From the IMG/VR virus record IMGVR_UViG_2548876949_000016: a stretch of 6,289 nt of DNA. One strand, written 5' to 3'. The DNA comes from a virus. Lineage: Duplodnaviria > Heunggongvirae > Uroviricota > Caudoviricetes. A program made the translations under genes and the position numbers. Under the pieces are notes generated by a model that saw only the letters and a list, made by a program, of their open reading frames with translations, was not told where the DNA came from and made no database searches. Below are positions 552 through 6,289 of the stretch, piece after piece; the first letter of the stretch is position 1; each line of letters begins with the position of its first letter.

Positions 552-788
552 TCACCCACCTGAATTTCTTTCCAGCCAGCGACGCGCTCCAGATTCGGTT
601 TTAAACGTTTTGCTTTTGGTATACGTCATTGCGGTGAACGTACCGTACTGGTTGGGGAACACGCCACATACCAGAGATTCGCTGTTGCCAAGATCGATAG
701 TATCCATGCTGACCTCATTTCCCCTTAACGCCGGGGTAGCGGAACAAAAACCTGCTGCATAGTTATTAAAGTTGAACCCTGCCGTCAT
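552..788 (-). CDS. hypothetical small protein (78 aa), first gene of the leftward early operon
   Basis: ORF with ATG at 788..786 and a GAGG motif about 9 nt upstream on the minus strand; lies immediately downstream (leftward) of the OL-like operator region; no family recognised. Its last ~20 codons overlap an alternative open frame, so the true 3' end is uncertain. Confidence 0.45.
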   Translation of the reverse strand: MTAGFNFNNYAAGFCSATPALRGNEVSMDTIDLGNSESLVCGVFPNQYGTFTAMTYTKSKTFKTESGARRWLERNSGG

Positions 789-972: not shown

Positions 973-1392
973 CTATGATGCGTTTTGTGCTTTCTTTTTA
1001 CGGATTTCTTCGTAGATCATATTGTAATACTGTTTTTTCTCTTCAAGAGTTTTTAATAATTTATCCGCTTCACTTTCTGGCAGTTCGTCTAAGAGATCTA
1101 AAAAAATACGTTGTCGTGGCGTTAGAACCCTTGTTTCATAACTGGAGGCTGTGTTCGTTGATGATGAAACGATACCATCCATCCATCCCCGGGGTAACCC
1201 AAAGGACTCTTCGATAATCTCCACCATATCATCAGCGATCCGTTTTTTTCCCTTTTTCCCCTCTGGGTACAACATTCTTGATACATAAGAAGGCTCGCGC
1301 CCGATCTTTCTGGCCACGTTAACCGCTTTACCATCGCATTTCTCATCACGAATTTTGATGAGTTGCTGTCGTCTAAATTCATATTTGTCCAT
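973..1392 (-). CDS. CI-like prophage repressor (139 aa) with N-terminal helix-turn-helix and no LexA/S24 peptidase domain
   Basis: Divergent from the cro-like gene; N-terminal segment KAVNVARKIGREPSYVSRM looks like a classical HTH; AT-rich codon usage typical of immunity genes; C-terminal half is charged/coiled-coil-like with no Ser-Lys dyad or S24 fold signature; flanked by repeated operator palindromes. Confidence 0.75.
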   Translation of the reverse strand: MDKYEFRRQQLIKIRDEKCDGKAVNVARKIGREPSYVSRMLYPEGKKGKKRIADDMVEIIEESFGLPRGWMDGIVSSSTNTASSYETRVLTPRQRIFLDLLDELPESEADKLLKTLEEKKQYYNMIYEEIRKKKAQNAS

Positions 1393-1492: not shown

Positions 1493-1774
1493 ATGGAAGA
1501 ATTAAGAATATTTCTCAATTCTCTTTCGTCAGATGAACAGCGTATGTTTGCATGCGAGTGTGGTACCAGCATCGGTTATCTAAGAAAGGCATTGAGTAAA
1601 GGTCAAGTGTTAGGGGCATCGTTATGTGTCCTTATTGAGCGAGCCAGTAATGGTGAAGTTACACGTCAGCAACTAAGGCCTTTTGATTGGATGAATATTT
1701 GGCCCGAGCTGGAAGATACCAAAACGTTAACACAACCACTTTCTAGGAGCTTGATTCATGAAAATCAAGCATGA
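1493..1774 (+). CDS. Cro-like HTH regulator of the YdaS family (93 aa)
   Basis: First rightward gene after the operator/promoter region with strong SD AAGGAG; segment SLCVLIERASNGEVTRQQLRPFDW resembles the conserved core I recall for Rac YdaS-type Cro-like proteins; 3' end overlaps the next gene by 17 nt. Confidence 0.7.
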   Translation: MEELRIFLNSLSSDEQRMFACECGTSIGYLRKALSKGQVLGASLCVLIERASNGEVTRQQLRPFDWMNIWPELEDTKTLTQPLSRSLIHENQA

Positions 1775-2183
1775 ACACATCCGCATGGCGATGAATGCCT
1801 GGGCGCGTCCTGATGGCGAAAAAGTTCCAGCAGCTGGAATAACCCAGGCTTATTTTGAGTTGGGTATGACGTTCCCAGAACTGTATGACGACAGCCATCC
1901 GGAAGCCCTGGCTCGCAATACCCAGAAAATTTTCCGCTGGGTAGAGAAAGACACCCCTGATGCTGTTGAAAAAATGCAGGCTCTGTTACCGGCGATCGAA
2001 AAGGCGATGCCGCCTTTGCTGGTGGCCCGTATGCGCAGCCACAGTTCTGAATATTACCGTGAGATCGTCGAACGGAGGGATCGGCTGGTGAAGGATGTCG
2101 ATGATTTTGTTGCGTCAGCGGTTGTTTTGTATGACCAGATGAATCGCGGCGGCCCGGCAGGGAATGCTGTGGTGATGCACTAA
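1758..2183 (+). CDS. YdaT-like protein (141 aa); CII functional analogue / putative toxin-domain protein
   Basis: Position directly after the Cro-like gene as in Rac-type prophages; size (~140 aa); AGGAG SD 8 nt upstream of ATG 1758. Family assignment is from gene order and recalled similarity, not a search. Confidence 0.55.
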   Translation: MKIKHEHIRMAMNAWARPDGEKVPAAGITQAYFELGMTFPELYDDSHPEALARNTQKIFRWVEKDTPDAVEKMQALLPAIEKAMPPLLVARMRSHSSEYYREIVERRDRLVKDVDDFVASAVVLYDQMNRGGPAGNAVVMH

Positions 2184-2205
2184 AAGCACGGTGTTCGGGG
2201 GTTTT

Positions 2206-3168
2206 ATGAGCAGCAAGCTTCATGGTCTTGTCTGGGAAGGGTGCGCCTTCACCGGCATGATCTTATCCAGGGTGGCGGTTATGGCCCGTCTTGCAGACTA
2301 CAGCAATGACGAGGGCGTGTCATGGCCTGCCATTGAAACTATCCGGCGTCAGATCGGTGCAAGAAGTGAATCCACAGTGAAATCGGCTATTGCAGAACTG
2401 GCGAAAGAGGGCTGGCTGACGAAGGAAGAGCGTAAGGTCGGTGGGCGTAATGTAAGCAATATCTATCGGCTTAATGTGGAAAAACTCGAAGCAGCTGCGG
2501 CGGCGGCGCGTGAGTCATATAAACCGAAAAGAAAAATTAGCCCGGCAAAAAATGACCCGTTAACAGTTGACCCGTCAAATATTGACCCCTCAACGGTTGA
2601 CCCGTCAAATTTTGATGGATCAACTGTTGATAAAAAACTGCCGATTAGGGGGGCGATGATTGACCCCGATCCGTCAGTATTAAAACCTGATCCGTCAGAT
2701 AAAAGATCTTCTTGTCCGGACGCTTCGCAACCGGACCCGCAGACGGCTGAACAGGATTTTTTAACCCGACACCCTGACGCGGTTGTGTTCAGTGCGAAAA
2801 AACGCCAGTGGGGAAGTCAGGAAGATTTGGTGTGCGCACAGTGGATCTGGGGACGAATCGTGAGTCTTTACGAGCAGGCGGCCAGCTATGATGGCGAGAT
2901 CACTAGACCGAAAGAACCCAACTGGACAGCATGGGCCAATGACGTTCGCACAATGCGGATGCTGGATGGCAGAACTCACAGACAAATTTGTGAAATGTTT
3001 GGGCGTCTCCAGCGGGATTCGTTCTGGGTAAAAAACATCATGAGTCCGGCAAAACTCCGGGAAAAATGGGATGAACTGGTTATCCGCCTGGGGCGTTCGC
3101 CTGCGCAGCGTTGCGTGAATCACATTTCTGAACCGGACACTGAAATACCGCCGGGATTCAGGGGGTGA
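2206..3168 (+). CDS. phage replication initiation protein: N-terminal HTH origin-binding domain, repeat-rich linker, DnaT-like (primosomal protein 1) C-terminal domain
   Basis: ATG 2206 preceded by a GGGGGG SD (2196..2201); the track's GTG at 2191 is an alternative start. N-terminal region has HTH character (SWPAIETIRRQIGARSESTVKSAIAELAKEGWL). C-terminus ends SEPDTEIPPGFRG, matching my recollection of the E. coli DnaT C-terminus (SEPDSQIPPGFRG). Contains the iteron array and is immediately followed by a DnaC homologue. Confidence 0.7.
   Translation: MSSKLHGLVWEGCAFTGMILSRVAVMARLADYSNDEGVSWPAIETIRRQIGARSESTVKSAIAELAKEGWLTKEERKVGGRNVSNIYRLNVEKLEAAAAAARESYKPKRKISPAKNDPLTVDPSNIDPSTVDPSNFDGSTVDKKLPIRGAMIDPDPSVLKPDPSDKRSSCPDASQPDPQTAEQDFLTRHPDAVVFSAKKRQWGSQEDLVCAQWIWGRIVSLYEQAASYDGEITRPKEPNWTAWANDVRTMRMLDGRTHRQICEMFGRLQRDSFWVKNIMSPAKLREKWDELVIRLGRSPAQRCVNHISEPDTEIPPGFRG
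2551..2640. repeat. iteron array (putative prophage origin of replication) embedded in the initiator gene: six 15-bp units, four well conserved
   Basis: Units at 2551, 2566, 2581, 2596, 2611, 2626: aatgacccgttaaca / gttgacccgtcaaat / attgacccctcaacg / gttgacccgtcaaat / tttgatggatcaact / gttgataaaaaactg; units 2 and 4 are identical. A further ATTGACCCC copy at 2659..2667. Followed by AT-rich stretches and four GATC sites (2618, 2668, 2689, 2705). Confidence 0.55.
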
Positions 3169-3174
3169 CGTGTC

Positions 3175-3921
3175 ATGAAAAACATTGCGGCAGTTGGGGT
3201 TCTTGAACGTATTCGCAGACTTGCACCACAGGGGTCGGTTCCACCGTACCGGACGGTGGAGGAGTGGCGGGAATGGCAACTTGCTGAAGGACGAAAACGC
3301 AGCGAGGAGATTAACCGCCAGAATCGCCAGTTGCGGGTGGAAAAAATCCTGAATCGTTCGGGCATCCAGCCTCTGCACAGCAAATGCTCGTTTGCAAATT
3401 ATCAGGTGCAGAACGACGGGCAAAAATACGCGCTGAGCCAGGCCAAATCCATAGCTGACGAACTGATGACCGGGTGCACGAATTTTGTGTTCAGTGGTAA
3501 AACCGGCACCGGGAAAAATCACCTTGCAGCGGCGATGGGCAACCGGCTGATGGTGAAGGGGCGCAGCGTGATTATCGTCACCGTGTCTGACGTCATGAGC
3601 GTGTTGCATGACAGCTACGACAACGGCAAATCCGGGGAAAAATTTTTACAGGAGCTTTGCGGGGTTGATTTGCTGGTCCTGGATGAAATAGGCGTTCAGC
3701 GGGAGACGAAAAACGAGCAGGTGGTATTGCACCAGATAATTGATCGCCGGACAGCATCACTGTGCAGTGTCGGGATGTTAACAAACCTGAATCATGCCGC
3801 AATGAGTACGCTTCTTGGTGAGAGGATTATGGACCGCATGACCATGAACGGTGGTCGATGGGTGACGTTTAACTGGGATAGCTGGCGTCCAAATGTCAGC
3901 AATATGAGGGTTGTGAAGTAA
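3175..3921 (+). CDS. DnaC-like replicative helicase loader (AAA+ ATPase, 248 aa)
   Basis: Walker A FSGKTGTGKNHLAAA and Walker B LLVLDEIGVQ, plus overall collinearity with E. coli DnaC as I recall it (N-terminal MKN..., RSGIQPLH, MLTN, LLGERIMDRM, FNWDSWR). Start is 7 nt after the initiator stop, with a purine-rich SD. Confidence 0.85.
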   Translation: MKNIAAVGVLERIRRLAPQGSVPPYRTVEEWREWQLAEGRKRSEEINRQNRQLRVEKILNRSGIQPLHSKCSFANYQVQNDGQKYALSQAKSIADELMTGCTNFVFSGKTGTGKNHLAAAMGNRLMVKGRSVIIVTVSDVMSVLHDSYDNGKSGEKFLQELCGVDLLVLDEIGVQRETKNEQVVLHQIIDRRTASLCSVGMLTNLNHAAMSTLLGERIMDRMTMNGGRWVTFNWDSWRPNVSNMRVVK

Positions 3922-3942: not shown

Positions 3943-4713
3943 ATGGAAACCGTATCTGACGCACTGAAAGCACTGAAAAAAGCCTCTTCACATGTGGTGG
4001 CAGCTCGCCTTGGAATCAGTCGTGAAGAGGCTGTCAACGAGCTGTGGGAACTCAAAAGAAAAGGCGTCGTTGATAAAACTGGTCACACCTGGTTTCTGGC
4101 TGGCGAAGGTGAATCCCGGGTAACCGAAGAGCGGCCAGTAAAATCTGAAGCACAGGATATGCTGACCGGGGAGGTCGAACAAAAAGTTACCGCAGACATG
4201 ATGATTGAGTTTATCGGTCAGGATGGGGCTAAAACGTGTGAGGAACTGGCGGGTAAGTTCGGTGTCAGTACTCGCAAGGTTGCTTCCACGCTGGCGGTGG
4301 TAACCGCAACGGGGCGGCTGGCACGCGTTAATCAGAACGGTAAATTTCGTTACTGCATGCCGGGCGATAATTTACCAGCAGAGCCGAAAGCCGCGCTGGT
4401 AACGGAAAGTGATGGTAAGGCCTTTCCTCAGCCAGCAGGTGCTGCGTTACCAGTCCGGGAAGCCGCAACACAGGAAGAAATTAAAACAGAAACTGTGGCG
4501 GACATTGTGCAGCCGTTGCCATCGTTTACCGAAACGCAAGCAGATGAGCTGATTTTTCCGTCCCTTCGCAGGGCAAACCTGGCGCTGCGCAGGGCGAAAA
4601 GTGATGTTCAGAAGTGGGAGCGAGTCTGCGCCGCGCTGCGGGAGCTGAACAAGCACCGGGATATTGTTCGACAGATTACTGATTCTTCCCGCCGTGTTGT
4701 ATCGGAAAAGTGA
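3943..4713 (+). CDS. hypothetical protein (256 aa) with two tandem winged-helix-like modules, possibly DUF1627/YdaW-like
   Basis: GGAGGA SD 3930..3935, ATG 3943. Internal duplication visible in the translation: residues ~5-53 (VAARLGISREEAVNELWELKRKGVVDKTGHTWFL) and ~84-140 (CEELAGKFGVSTRKVASTLAVVTATGRLARVNQNGKFRYCM) both fit a winged-helix pattern; basic helical C-terminus. Follows the DnaC-like gene as ydaW does in Rac. Confidence 0.55.
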   Translation: METVSDALKALKKASSHVVAARLGISREEAVNELWELKRKGVVDKTGHTWFLAGEGESRVTEERPVKSEAQDMLTGEVEQKVTADMMIEFIGQDGAKTCEELAGKFGVSTRKVASTLAVVTATGRLARVNQNGKFRYCMPGDNLPAEPKAALVTESDGKAFPQPAGAALPVREAATQEEIKTETVADIVQPLPSFTETQADELIFPSLRRANLALRRAKSDVQKWERVCAALRELNKHRDIVRQITDSSRRVVSEK

Positions 4714-4728
4714 TTGCCGGAGGCGCTT

Positions 4729-5154
4729 ATGGCAAAAGTATTTACACAAGAAGAGCGGGAAAAAATTAAAGGGCAGGTTGTTGAACTTGTACGTCTGAGC
4801 GGTCGCGAGACGTTGCGGCAACTGGAAGCCAAGACAGGTGCGACAAGATATCTGATGAGTGTTCTCGCCAGAGAGCTGGTTGCCAGTGGCGATGTATACA
4901 ACTCTGGTTACGGGTTATTCCCGTCTGAACAGGCGCGTAAGGACTGGCAAAATGCTCGCAAAAAACTCTCAAGGGCAAAGGTGAAGAAACCTGCAGTGGT
5001 TGATCCGGACCTTATCTGGTCGTTACCAGACGGCGAAATACGCCGCTACGACAGGCGCCTGAATATAATCTGTCGCGAGTGCCGGAAGAGCGAAGCTATG
5101 CAGCGTGTACTGGCATTTTATCAAGGAAATGTTAGGTATTTTAGACGTTACTAG
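4729..5154 (+). CDS. hypothetical protein (141 aa from ATG 4729) with one winged-helix-like module and a basic Cys-containing C-terminus
   Basis: GGAGG SD 4719..4723, 5 nt before ATG 4729; the track's 4714 start is an in-frame TTG just after the upstream stop. Segment VVELVRLSGRETLRQLEAKTGATRYLMSVLARELVASGDV has winged-helix character; no family recognised. Confidence 0.5.
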   Translation: MAKVFTQEEREKIKGQVVELVRLSGRETLRQLEAKTGATRYLMSVLARELVASGDVYNSGYGLFPSEQARKDWQNARKKLSRAKVKKPAVVDPDLIWSLPDGEIRRYDRRLNIICRECRKSEAMQRVLAFYQGNVRYFRRY

Positions 5155-5307: not shown

Positions 5308-5994
5308 ATGACCCCAATAAAAATATTTATGACTATTGCTGATTTCAAACGGCCTAAATTGGAGCTCCCAAACGGGGCAAACAAACTACTACTGCACTCT
5401 TGCTGTGCTCCATGTTCCGGTGAAGTGATGGAGGCGCTTCAGGCCTCGGGAATCGACTACACCATCTTTTTCTACAACCCGAACATTCATCCTCAGAAAG
5501 AGTATTTAATTCGTAAGGATGAAAATATTCGCTTTGCTGAACAACACGGCGTGCCGTTTATCGATGCTGATTACGACACCGACAACTGGTTTGAACGTGC
5601 CAAAGGAATGGAATGGGAGCCTGAGAGGGGGATCCGTTGTACCATGTGTTTTGACATGCGTTTTGAGCGGACAGCGTTGTACGCTGCTGAAAATGGTTTC
5701 AGTGTGATCAGCAGTTCACTGGGCATTTCACGCTGGAAAAATATGCAGCAGGTTAACGAGTGTGGGCGGCGAGCTGTTGCGCATTATCCGGGTATGGTGT
5801 ACTGGGATTATAACTGGCGCAAGCAGGGCGGCTCGTCCCGTATGATTGAAATCAGCAAGCGCGAAAAATTCTATCAGCAGGAATATTGTGGCTGTGTGTA
5901 TTCTCTGCGCGATACCAATCTACACCGCAAATCTCAGGGACGCCCTCTTATCAAAATTGGCCAACTCCACTACGGAAAAGAAGAGAAGGAGTGA
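5308..5994 (+). CDS. queH: QueH-like epoxyqueuosine reductase (DUF208 family, 228 aa), prophage cargo
   Basis: Three cysteine motifs that I recall as the QueH/DUF208 signature: [11 protein letters not shown] (nt ~5389..5421), [10 protein letters not shown] (~5638..5667) and EYCGCVYS (~5881..5904). Separated from the upstream gene by a 153-bp gap containing TTGACA at 5182..5187. No convincing Shine-Dalgarno before ATG 5308 or the alternative ATG 5329, so the start is uncertain. Confidence 0.6.
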
Positions 5995-6289
5995 TTTTAT
6001 GGATCACCTTTCTGATTGATTTCATATTGGCGAGGTGACGTGAGTTAAGTAGAATGGCTGCGGGTGCTTGAGGCTATCTGTCTCAGGCATGAACACTGAA
6101 AGGCAGATAGAGAAAAGCCCCAGTTAACATTTCGCGTCCTGCAAGACGCTTAACATTAATCTGAGGCCCAATCTATGTCTCACAAATGTAGGTTAGCCTC
6201 TTACGTGCCGAAAGGCAAGGGGAAGCAGGCTATTGTTAACACCAAGCTGTAATGTCCCCTTTGAACCATTCTAAAATGTCCCCAGACAA

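Follow-up and report, generated by a model that had tools for sequence, protein, structure and literature searches.

YdaS-like and YdaT proteins as the probable Cro and CII analogues of a heteroimmune lambdoid switch in Escherichia coli prophage DNA

Regulatory gene pairs of the YdaS/YdaT kind have been characterised in two E. coli prophages, CP-933P and Rac. YdaT of CP-933P is a POU-type helix-turn-helix tetramer (Prolic-Kalinsek et al., PMC9986795) whose footprint at the end of ydaS is a 5'-TTGATT-N6-AATCAA-3' inverted repeat called OM (PMC9986795). The protein was without toxicity, and it turned on a silent leftward promoter between ydaS and ydaT (Jurenas et al., PMC8630535); the box sits over, or downstream of, the proposed start of that leftward transcript (PMC8630535, PMC9986795). 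The footprint of CP-933P YdaS covers PRM first and then PR, in the manner of Cro (PMC8630535, PMC9986795). In Rac, where the motif was footprinted as well, the box differs by one base and holds the ydaT ATG within its spacer, a reverse promoter feeding racR is activated 29-fold in a box-dependent manner, the YdaT proteins of Rac and CP-933P cross-activate, and there is a local similarity between the alpha3 helices of Rac YdaT and lambda CII (Wons et al., PMC11879457).

The window analysed here, by which we mean the whole 6,289-nucleotide stretch of IMG/VR record IMGVR_UViG_2548876949_000016, is lambdoid prophage DNA of E. coli. It is very probable that positions 890-2183 are the immunity switch of this prophage and that 1493-2183 encode its Cro (YdaS-like) and CII (YdaT) analogues. 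The switch is a heteroimmune member of the characterised family, and its YdaT is essentially the protein whose structure has been solved. The genes, their homologies, the sequences and positions of the operators and the YdaT-box, and the linkage between modules were all computed in this work. A repressor gene on the minus strand (973-1392) diverges from a rightward, plus-strand series consisting of a cro-like gene (ydaS-like, 1493-1774), a cII-like gene (ydaT, 1758-2183), an O-like replication initiator (2206-3168 if the RefSeq start is taken, 2191-3168 if the first in-frame start codon, GTG, is used) and a DnaC-like helicase loader (3175-3921), with DUF1627, a DUF977/Ren-like protein and QueH further to the right. 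The first-pass annotation of this DNA had described 1493-2183 as an overlapping YdaS-like/YdaT-like pair at the head of the rightward operon. The open reading frame list bears out both points: the two frames share 1758-1774 (17 nt), and they are the first genes after the sole consensus-like rightward promoter of the intergenic region.

The module is widespread in E. coli chromosomes. Many O145:H28, O55:H7 and other STEC chromosomes match positions 780-2300 at 100% identity, and 813 of 5426 complete genomes have this segment at a coverage of at least 80%, while bovine and O157:H7 strains carry nearly the entire window with 99-100% identity. The prophage that carries the module in O55:H7 RM12579 occupies the Rac site beside ttcA and also contains intR, xisR, ralR, recET and dicB, and carrier prophages retain int, xis, replication genes, Q and more genes of the late region. 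A megablast search of 780-2300 against 50,697 phage records matched the flanks alone (coverage no higher than 35%) and returned no sequenced phage with the same DNA cassette, so protein-level searches were needed.

Both overlapping frames are real genes under purifying selection and not chance ORFs. This follows from the low dN/dS of ydaT (0.10, 0.14 and 0.08 against the Sp12, Sp11 and Shigella copies, respectively) and from a pN far below pS in the ydaS-like gene, which against mEp043 cro has a pN of 0.22 with saturated synonymous sites (pS 0.97). The DNA-binding domain of the repressor likewise shows saturated synonymous change against mEp043 with a pN of about 0.2. Each of the two genes has its own Shine-Dalgarno sequence, AAGGAG (1482-1487) 5 nt ahead of the ydaS-like ATG and AGGAG (1745-1749) 8 nt ahead of the ydaT ATG.

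The 141-residue YdaT passes the gathering score of Pfam PF06254, the family with the CII analogues of CP-933P, Rac and phi80 type (37.8 bits against 21, with the best stretch at profile positions 1-53 of 92), matches PHROG 163, 'CII-like transcriptional activator' (2.3e-47), and shares 96% identity with CP-933P YdaT as crystallised in PDB 8BT1 (E 1e-88). In the comparison with CP-933P, for which the equivalent Sp12 was used with its sequence taken from the Sakai genome, there are six substitutions among 141 residues, all in the N-terminal half, and residues 64-141 are identical. The recognition-helix residues R60 and W61 are invariant in YdaT of the window, CP-933P and Rac. At the start of the gene lies the YdaT-box TTGATTCATGAAAATCAA (1751-1768), an inverted repeat that matches TTGATT-N6-AATCAA exactly and whose 6-nt spacer holds the ydaT ATG (1758). 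The count of such boxes is not significant by itself, given that 79 of 200 shuffles yield at least one match with up to two mismatches; the weight of the box comes instead from the exact match, the homologous position and its conservation. A pattern search at up to three mismatches found no other YdaT-box near the switch, including the intervals 789-972 and 1393-1492, to which the first-pass annotation had directed YdaT binding assays. The predicted strong site is 1751-1768, and those two intervals carry predicted operators for the repressor and Cro, although weak degenerate YdaT sites in the style of the Rac intergenic region may occur in either of them.

The position of the leftward promoter on which YdaT would act is less sharply drawn. 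The standard promoter scan returned no minus-strand promoter within 1493-1830, and a relaxed scan gave a weak candidate for a YdaT-dependent PRE analogue on the minus strand (1694-1722; -35 TTGGTA, 17-nt spacer, -10 AATATT, 8/12). This candidate, which would place the box near -72, is kept as a low-confidence placeholder and is not relied on, because neither hexamer is kept in the Salmonella homologue. A promoter with TAGAAA as its -10 and the box's right half as its -35 was rejected as well, that pairing not being conserved. The window, Sp11 and Sp12 do not differ in the stretch of ydaT that adjoins the box on its right, and any PRE933P elements located there are therefore kept. As the position of the box is unusual for an activator, YdaT may, by analogy, also serve as a repressor or roadblock. 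An inverted repeat of 21 nt (1361-1381 against 1654-1674, 18/21 complementary) could pair in a leftward transcript; it was put down to chance or to a shared peptide motif (EFRRQQL/EVTRQQL), because the ydaS arm is changed without compensation in the Salmonella locus.

The 93-residue YdaS-like protein (ATG start) is recognised through several lines of homology. It matches PHROG 35 (4.8e-23), and phmmer aligned it with CP-933P YdaS (PDB 8C7K/8CO2) at E 1e-10 with about 38% identity over 72 aligned residues, full-length alignment giving 34%. Among phage proteins, Cro of the temperate coliphage mEp043 comes closest, with 73% identity over 73 residues, and some cluster relatives carry the name 'YdaS family helix-turn-helix protein'. 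There was no match to an NCBIfam model, and Pfam PF15943 (YdaS, COG4197) was matched over residues 35-66 only, with a score (25.8 bits, E 9.2e-6) below the gathering score of 30. At the level of family models, the assignment proposed in the first-pass annotation thus stands for YdaT and falls short of the threshold for its partner. The AlphaFold model (pLDDT 71.6) has four to five helices, with a helix-turn-helix core at about residues 1-70 and a low-confidence tail at 76-93; its best fold matches are 8CO2 and 8C7K (TM 0.41-0.52). The model adds little to the sequence match.

The third protein of the switch is the divergent immunity repressor of 139 residues (973-1392, minus strand), with an N-terminal helix-turn-helix domain, a disordered linker at 77-87 and two C-terminal helices. 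It matches PHROG 5736, 'transcriptional regulator' (6.4e-70); residues 1-86 share 65% identity with mEp043 cI, and PaaR2 is matched at 23% identity over 90 residues (E 8e-9). A relationship to RacR was considered and rejected, as BLASTP against K-12 RacR came back empty and the protein is instead PaaR2- and mEp043-cI-like. The structure model (pLDDT 81.8) superposes its N-terminal domain on Rep of Salmonella phage SPC32H (5D50) with an rmsd of 1.2-1.7 Å over 72 residues; SPC32H Rep is controlled by an antirepressor. Most proteins with this DNA-binding domain in a large protein collection have an S24 LexA-type peptidase fused to it (221-242 aa, PF00717), yet the 139-aa protein has no Pfam match, PF00717 included, and its C-terminus is DicA-like. 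In this repressor lineage a PaaR2/DicA-like C-terminus thus appears to have taken the place of the S24 self-cleavage domain that its relatives carry. Not all lambdoid repressors have S24, and RacR, PaaR2 and DicA are likewise without it. A repressor that has no S24 domain may leave the switch blind to RecA, and induction, if any, might then proceed through an antirepressor as in SPC32H.

Predicted operators tie these proteins to the DNA. With up to one mismatch, TACC-N4-GGTA occurs seven times in the whole window against 1.25 expected, a number reached in none of 200 shuffles, and five of the seven sites lie in the switch. Three of them were placed by pattern search in the 100-bp spacer between the divergent genes: O1, TACCGCAAGGTA (1413-1424), covers the PRM -35 in an OR3-like position; O2, AACCTGTGGGTA (1428-1439), which belongs to direct repeat D2, abuts the PR -35; and O3, TACCTGTGGGTA (1452-1463), covers the PR spacer and -10 in an OR1-like position. 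The other two, TACCCATAGGTA (894-905) and TACCCATGGGTA (919-930), lie 25 bp apart to the left of the repressor gene and make up a predicted OL (894-930), also from the pattern search. In a Salmonella homologue the operator half-sites are kept and the central four bases vary.

The predicted PR on the plus strand (1440-1467; -35 TTGACT at 1440-1445, 16-nt spacer, -10 TATTCT at 1462-1467; promoter scan, 9/12) is the only consensus-like rightward promoter in the 100-bp intergenic region. The same scan placed a predicted PRM on the minus strand (1399-1426; -35 TTTACC at 1426-1421, 16-nt spacer, -10 TATTAT at 1404-1399). PR is both flanked and overlapped by the repeated TACC-N4-GGTA sites, and it is therefore a well-founded inference that the repressor directly controls ydaS-ydaT. 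The OL region mirrors the OR/PR region (inverted repeats I1, I3, I5, I6 and I11), with operators at the same relative positions, and because of this mirror symmetry a PL was assigned there by eye on the minus strand (890-918; -35 TTTACT at 918-913, 17-nt spacer, -10 TATCCT at 895-890), its score of 8/12 lying under the scan threshold. The repressor ATG (A at 1392) lies 7 nt beyond the PRM -10, so that a leaderless repressor mRNA is predicted, with cI and paaR2 as precedents (PMC8630535).

A working model of the switch can be built from these elements, in which published work on CP-933P, Rac and lambda supplies the assignment of proteins to sites, the direction in which each regulates, the leaderless mRNA and the place of the leftward promoter. 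A leaderless PRM transcript would yield the 139-aa repressor in the lysogen, and this protein would bind TACC-N4-GGTA at OR, with O3 over the PR -10 and O2 beside the -35, and at OL, which would keep PL silent along with PR and its genes (ydaS-ydaT-O-dnaC and beyond). Should repression fail, PR would transcribe ydaS and, by analogy with Cro and CP-933P YdaS, the YdaS-like protein would bind the same operators and shut PRM through O1 over its -35. YdaT, translated from its own Shine-Dalgarno sequence inside the 3' end of ydaS, would form a tetramer, bind TTGATT-N6-AATCAA across its own start codon and activate a weak leftward promoter. The resulting transcript would run antisense through ydaS into the repressor gene and lead back to repression, whereby lysogeny would be established or restored.

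The relationship between the pair and its surroundings becomes clearer when many loci are compared. Eighty-eight loci were gathered with YdaT as the bait and, with the window, Sp11 and Sp12, 91 were parsed. The start of ydaT and its box (nnGATTCATGAAAATCAA) are conserved across them, the box being kept at this position in every locus (n = 91). Upstream of this conserved element stand about twelve unrelated Cro-like ORFs, the Cro type is perfectly linked to its own divergent repressor type, and the triple TACC-N4-GGTA operator is found in 35 of 35 loci of the window type and in 0 of 56 others. Among the window, Sp11 and Sp12, DNA homology starts at the box. O157:H7 Sakai holds two such modules, Sp11 and Sp12. 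These comparisons indicate that repressor, operators and cro co-vary as one specificity cassette, independent of the flanking modules, and that the CII analogue is a shared neighbour, as in lambdoid immunity regions; with about twelve unrelated partners for YdaT, YdaS and YdaT are therefore not a co-evolving cognate pair.

The same survey accounts for the overlap between the two genes. The upstream ORF can terminate in any of three forms: with ...DS* and a 4-nt ATGA overlap with ydaT; with ...IHENQA* and a 17-nt overlap, a form shared by five different Cro families, those of the window and Sp11 included; or with a stop ahead of the box (Rac and one Serratia locus). One Sp11-type variant changes the 17-nt form to the 4-nt form. 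The six C-terminal residues IHENQA of the YdaS-like protein are encoded by the conserved YdaT-box and ydaT start. The 17-nt overlap is accordingly a by-product of the frame in which the cassette meets the conserved box, and it is no special feature, because it is fixed only by the reading frame of the cro cassette at that point.

It may further be that the box and the ydaT start are a recombination joint for whole repressor/operator/cro cassettes, with the 4-nt and 17-nt overlaps as scars, and the box may in addition connect heteroimmune prophages of the same cell in trans. If there is such a connection, YdaT made by any one prophage would raise the production of repressor in every other, and their lysogeny decisions would be coupled. 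The combined proposal, of a box that is at once the joint for cassette exchange and a trans link between heteroimmune prophages, next to a repressor blind to RecA, is put forward tentatively, and we regard it as somewhat doubtful.

The first-pass annotation had left two roles open for the pair, a toxic module held in check by the repressor and a set of Cro and CII analogues, and had taken the arrangement as the likely decision point between lysogeny maintenance and host growth arrest. A toxin or toxin-antitoxin-like module that the repressor mainly serves to silence, and whose de-repression would arrest host growth, is what the Pfam names 'YdaS_toxin' and 'YdaT_toxin' and the RefSeq name 'toxin YdaT family protein' suggest. 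Expression or de-repression of Rac YdaS/YdaT is indeed lethal, with filamentation (PMC11879457, PMC5700377, PMC5700373), and growth was slowed by prolonged overexpression of CP-933P YdaS and PaaR2 (PMC8630535). However, the nearest characterised protein, the 96% identical CP-933P YdaT, is both non-toxic (PMC8630535) and a sequence-specific DNA-binding tetramer, with a fold that combines a POU-like DNA-binding domain with a tetramerisation helix and is not that of a toxin (PMC9986795). The survey also showed the same YdaT next to about twelve unrelated partners that co-vary with the repressor and not with YdaT, the opposite of a cognate toxin-antitoxin pair, and PADLOC gave no match of the three switch proteins to a defence or toxin-antitoxin model. 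The toxicity seen in Rac is a matter of transcriptional mis-regulation via rcsA (PMC11879457), and Jobling's letter notes that overproduced lambda CII is also toxic, yet is no toxin. Overexpression of the window's YdaT may likewise be toxic or have a host-directed effect, as Rac YdaT has on host rcsA (PMC11879457). Taken as a whole, the evidence makes a toxin module extremely unlikely here, and the toxin-antitoxin reading of the pair is unsupported.

A second alternative is a cryptic prophage whose genes have stayed intact but idle, with a switch that decides nothing and a pair that persists by recent descent. Many carriers do hold the module at 99-100% identity, and conservation within E. coli could reflect recent spread; the related prophages CP-933P and Rac are, moreover, defective. 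Against this, purifying selection is recorded across diverged copies, in ydaT (dN/dS 0.08-0.14) as in ydaS and the repressor domain, for which pN is about 0.2 with synonymous sites saturated relative to mEp043. The operators, promoters and ribosome-binding sites are intact, the layout is conserved with a viable phage, and the carrier prophages keep int, xis, replication genes, Q and further late-region genes. The switch of cryptic CP-933P is itself still bistable and functional (PMC8630535). We therefore consider idle remnants very unlikely. The reading of the pair as Cro and CII analogues in a decision module is the one strongly favoured by the 96% identity of YdaT to that of CP-933P, the exact box, the homology of the YdaS-like protein to YdaS and mEp043 Cro, and the shared architecture of operators and promoters.

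The analysis reveals no new kind of system, and its value lies in what it adds to a known one. The RefSeq 'toxin YdaT family protein' of E. coli genomes is better described as a CII-type regulator with a recognisable operator, which corrects a database label, and the neighbouring 'hypothetical protein' gains a function as an immunity repressor with predicted TACC-N4-GGTA operators. Many immunity cassettes of STEC prophages share a single CII-type module, a finding that bears on cross-talk between co-resident prophages, including those of strains rich in Stx phages. The points added are a predicted operator code, the loss of S24 in the repressor lineage and the YdaT-box as a module junction common to several prophages in one genome.

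Among the known systems, CP-933P/Sp12 of O157:H7 (PMC8630535, PMC9986795; PDB 8BT1, 8C7K, 8CO2) is alike in its 96% identical YdaT, in its gene order with the identical box TTGATTCATGAAAATCAA at the ydaS/ydaT junction, and in DNA homology from the box rightwards into the O-like gene. The YdaS proteins are homologous, and the window's repressor is a distant homologue of PaaR2 with predicted leaderless expression. In contrast, the repressor/operator/cro cassettes are unrelated in DNA. The CP-933P operators are four 18-bp palindromes with the consensus half-site GTTTAGTAA, whereas the window has three TACC-N4-GGTA sites; ydaS and ydaT overlap by 17 nt in the window and by 4 nt (ATGA) in CP-933P; and, unlike in CP-933P, the paaA2-parE2 toxin-antitoxin pair is absent downstream of the window's repressor gene. 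Rac of K-12 (PMC11879457, PMC5700373, PMC5700377) shares the gene order and the logic of the switch, and its YdaT-box, ATGATT-N6-AATCAA, also spans the ydaT ATG with a single nucleotide different. The proteins are further apart, with 32% identity for YdaT, 26% for YdaS and a RacR that is unrelated to the window's repressor, and the two genes are separated by a 22-nt gap instead of overlapping. Toxicity and control of rcsA have been demonstrated for the Rac protein only.

The repressor/Cro cassette appears to be of a known kind, close kin of that of a viable phage, mEp043, with 65% identity in the repressor DNA-binding domain and 73% in Cro. mEp043 also has three TACC-N4-GGTA sites at OR, spaced by 15 and 25 bp (15 and 24-25 bp across it and the window), and to the left of cI a pair at OL whose spacing is 25 bp, and its PRM (TTTACC/16/TAGAAT) is followed by the cI ATG 7 nt after the -10. 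The differences lie at the ends of the proteins and beyond. Its cI is 228 aa long with a C-terminal extension, and comparably long homologues carry PF00717, whereas the window's repressor has a short helical PaaR2/DicA-like C-terminus; its 76-aa Cro is followed by a gap and then by a lambda-type cII, not by YdaT. Lambda itself differs in that CII recognises a direct TTGC repeat, whereas YdaT recognises an inverted repeat as a 222-symmetric tetramer (PMC9986795), and the window is without the nutR/tR1 spacer between the two genes. The overall plan is nonetheless that of lambda, with a divergent repressor and cro, tripartite operators, replication genes of the O/P type next in line and, by analogy, a second regulator that would bind between cro and its own gene and drive leftward transcription of the repressor.

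Two heteroimmune switches were found within the single chromosome of E. coli Sakai, one in prophage Sp11 (L002 18557-19938) and the other in Sp12 (L003 11838-13523). Each encodes a YdaT protein, an analogue of CII, that shares at least 91% identity with the YdaT of the window. Both switches also carry the YdaT-box, the inverted repeat located at the ydaS/ydaT junction, with a left half-site of GGGATT in Sp11 versus TTGATT in Sp12. The window-type module is also present in O157:H7 strain Z563, where eight places in the chromosome match the window. These occurrences leave room for cross-talk between prophages via YdaT.

On the minus strand, the two OL operators (894-930) can pair with one another to form a 16-bp stem followed by TCCTTCTTTT, an arrangement that is terminator-like by scan score and lies approximately 40 nt beyond the point where the repressor reading frame ends. 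The stem could double as a terminator for the repressor transcript, or may simply result from the two operators being near-palindromic. A further operator-like sequence, TGTCCATAGGTA (1386-1397), has two mismatches relative to TACCCATAGGTA and shares a direct repeat (D3) with OL. It overlaps both the repressor start codon and the start of the predicted repressor promoter, PRM, and may be a weak fourth operator site, although the likeness may also be due to chance.

A 21-nt inverted repeat, complementary at 18 of 21 positions, links repressor codons 4-11 (1361-1381; peptide EFRRQQL) with ydaS codons 55-61 (1654-1674; EVTRQQL). The chance of such a repeat arising in a 1-kb region is roughly estimated at ∼0.01. 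No compensating changes accompany the diverged ydaS arm in the Salmonella homologue compared, and an RNA-pairing role is therefore unsupported.

Among the other genes, the start codon of the DUF1391 gene (552-788, minus strand) is uncertain: the longest ORF spans 78 aa, with the domain confined to residues 29-76, and RefSeq annotates a shorter DUF1391 protein of 50 aa in the same frame region of a comparison locus (L001 11776-11928). The DUF1627 protein (3943-4713, plus strand) has weak winged-helix/HTH matches at its two ends. For the DUF977 protein (4714-5154, plus strand) there is a hit to PHROG 142 (1.7e-46), a family labelled ‘Ren-like exclusion protein’. Both are encoded by conserved early-right genes of putative function.

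The right end of the window is, on sequence grounds, the start of a hok/sok-type type I toxin-antitoxin locus. The sok antitoxin RNA (6062-6234, plus strand) matches the full length of Rfam model RF01794 at 115.6 bits, well above the gathering score of 59, and hokD or mokC/hokC is present at the corresponding region in related prophages.

In the early-right region, 3′ of the DUF977 gene, lies a gene for the epoxyqueuosine reductase QueH (5308-5994, plus strand; PF02677, 1.1e-65). Its position resembles a site for morons or cargo genes. In O157:H7 Z563 the genes that follow QueH encode a cytosine methyltransferase and a restriction enzyme of the NgoMIV type, whereas in O55:H7 RM12579 DUF4406 and ead/Ea22-like genes occupy this position.

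The repressor (973-1392, minus strand) is without an S24 self-cleavage domain, which distinguishes it from most proteins sharing its DNA-binding domain (221-242 aa, with PF00717). Its N-terminal domain is similar to Rep (5D50), a Salmonella phage SPC32H protein under antirepressor control. These features point to induction that is RecA-independent, possibly via an antirepressor.
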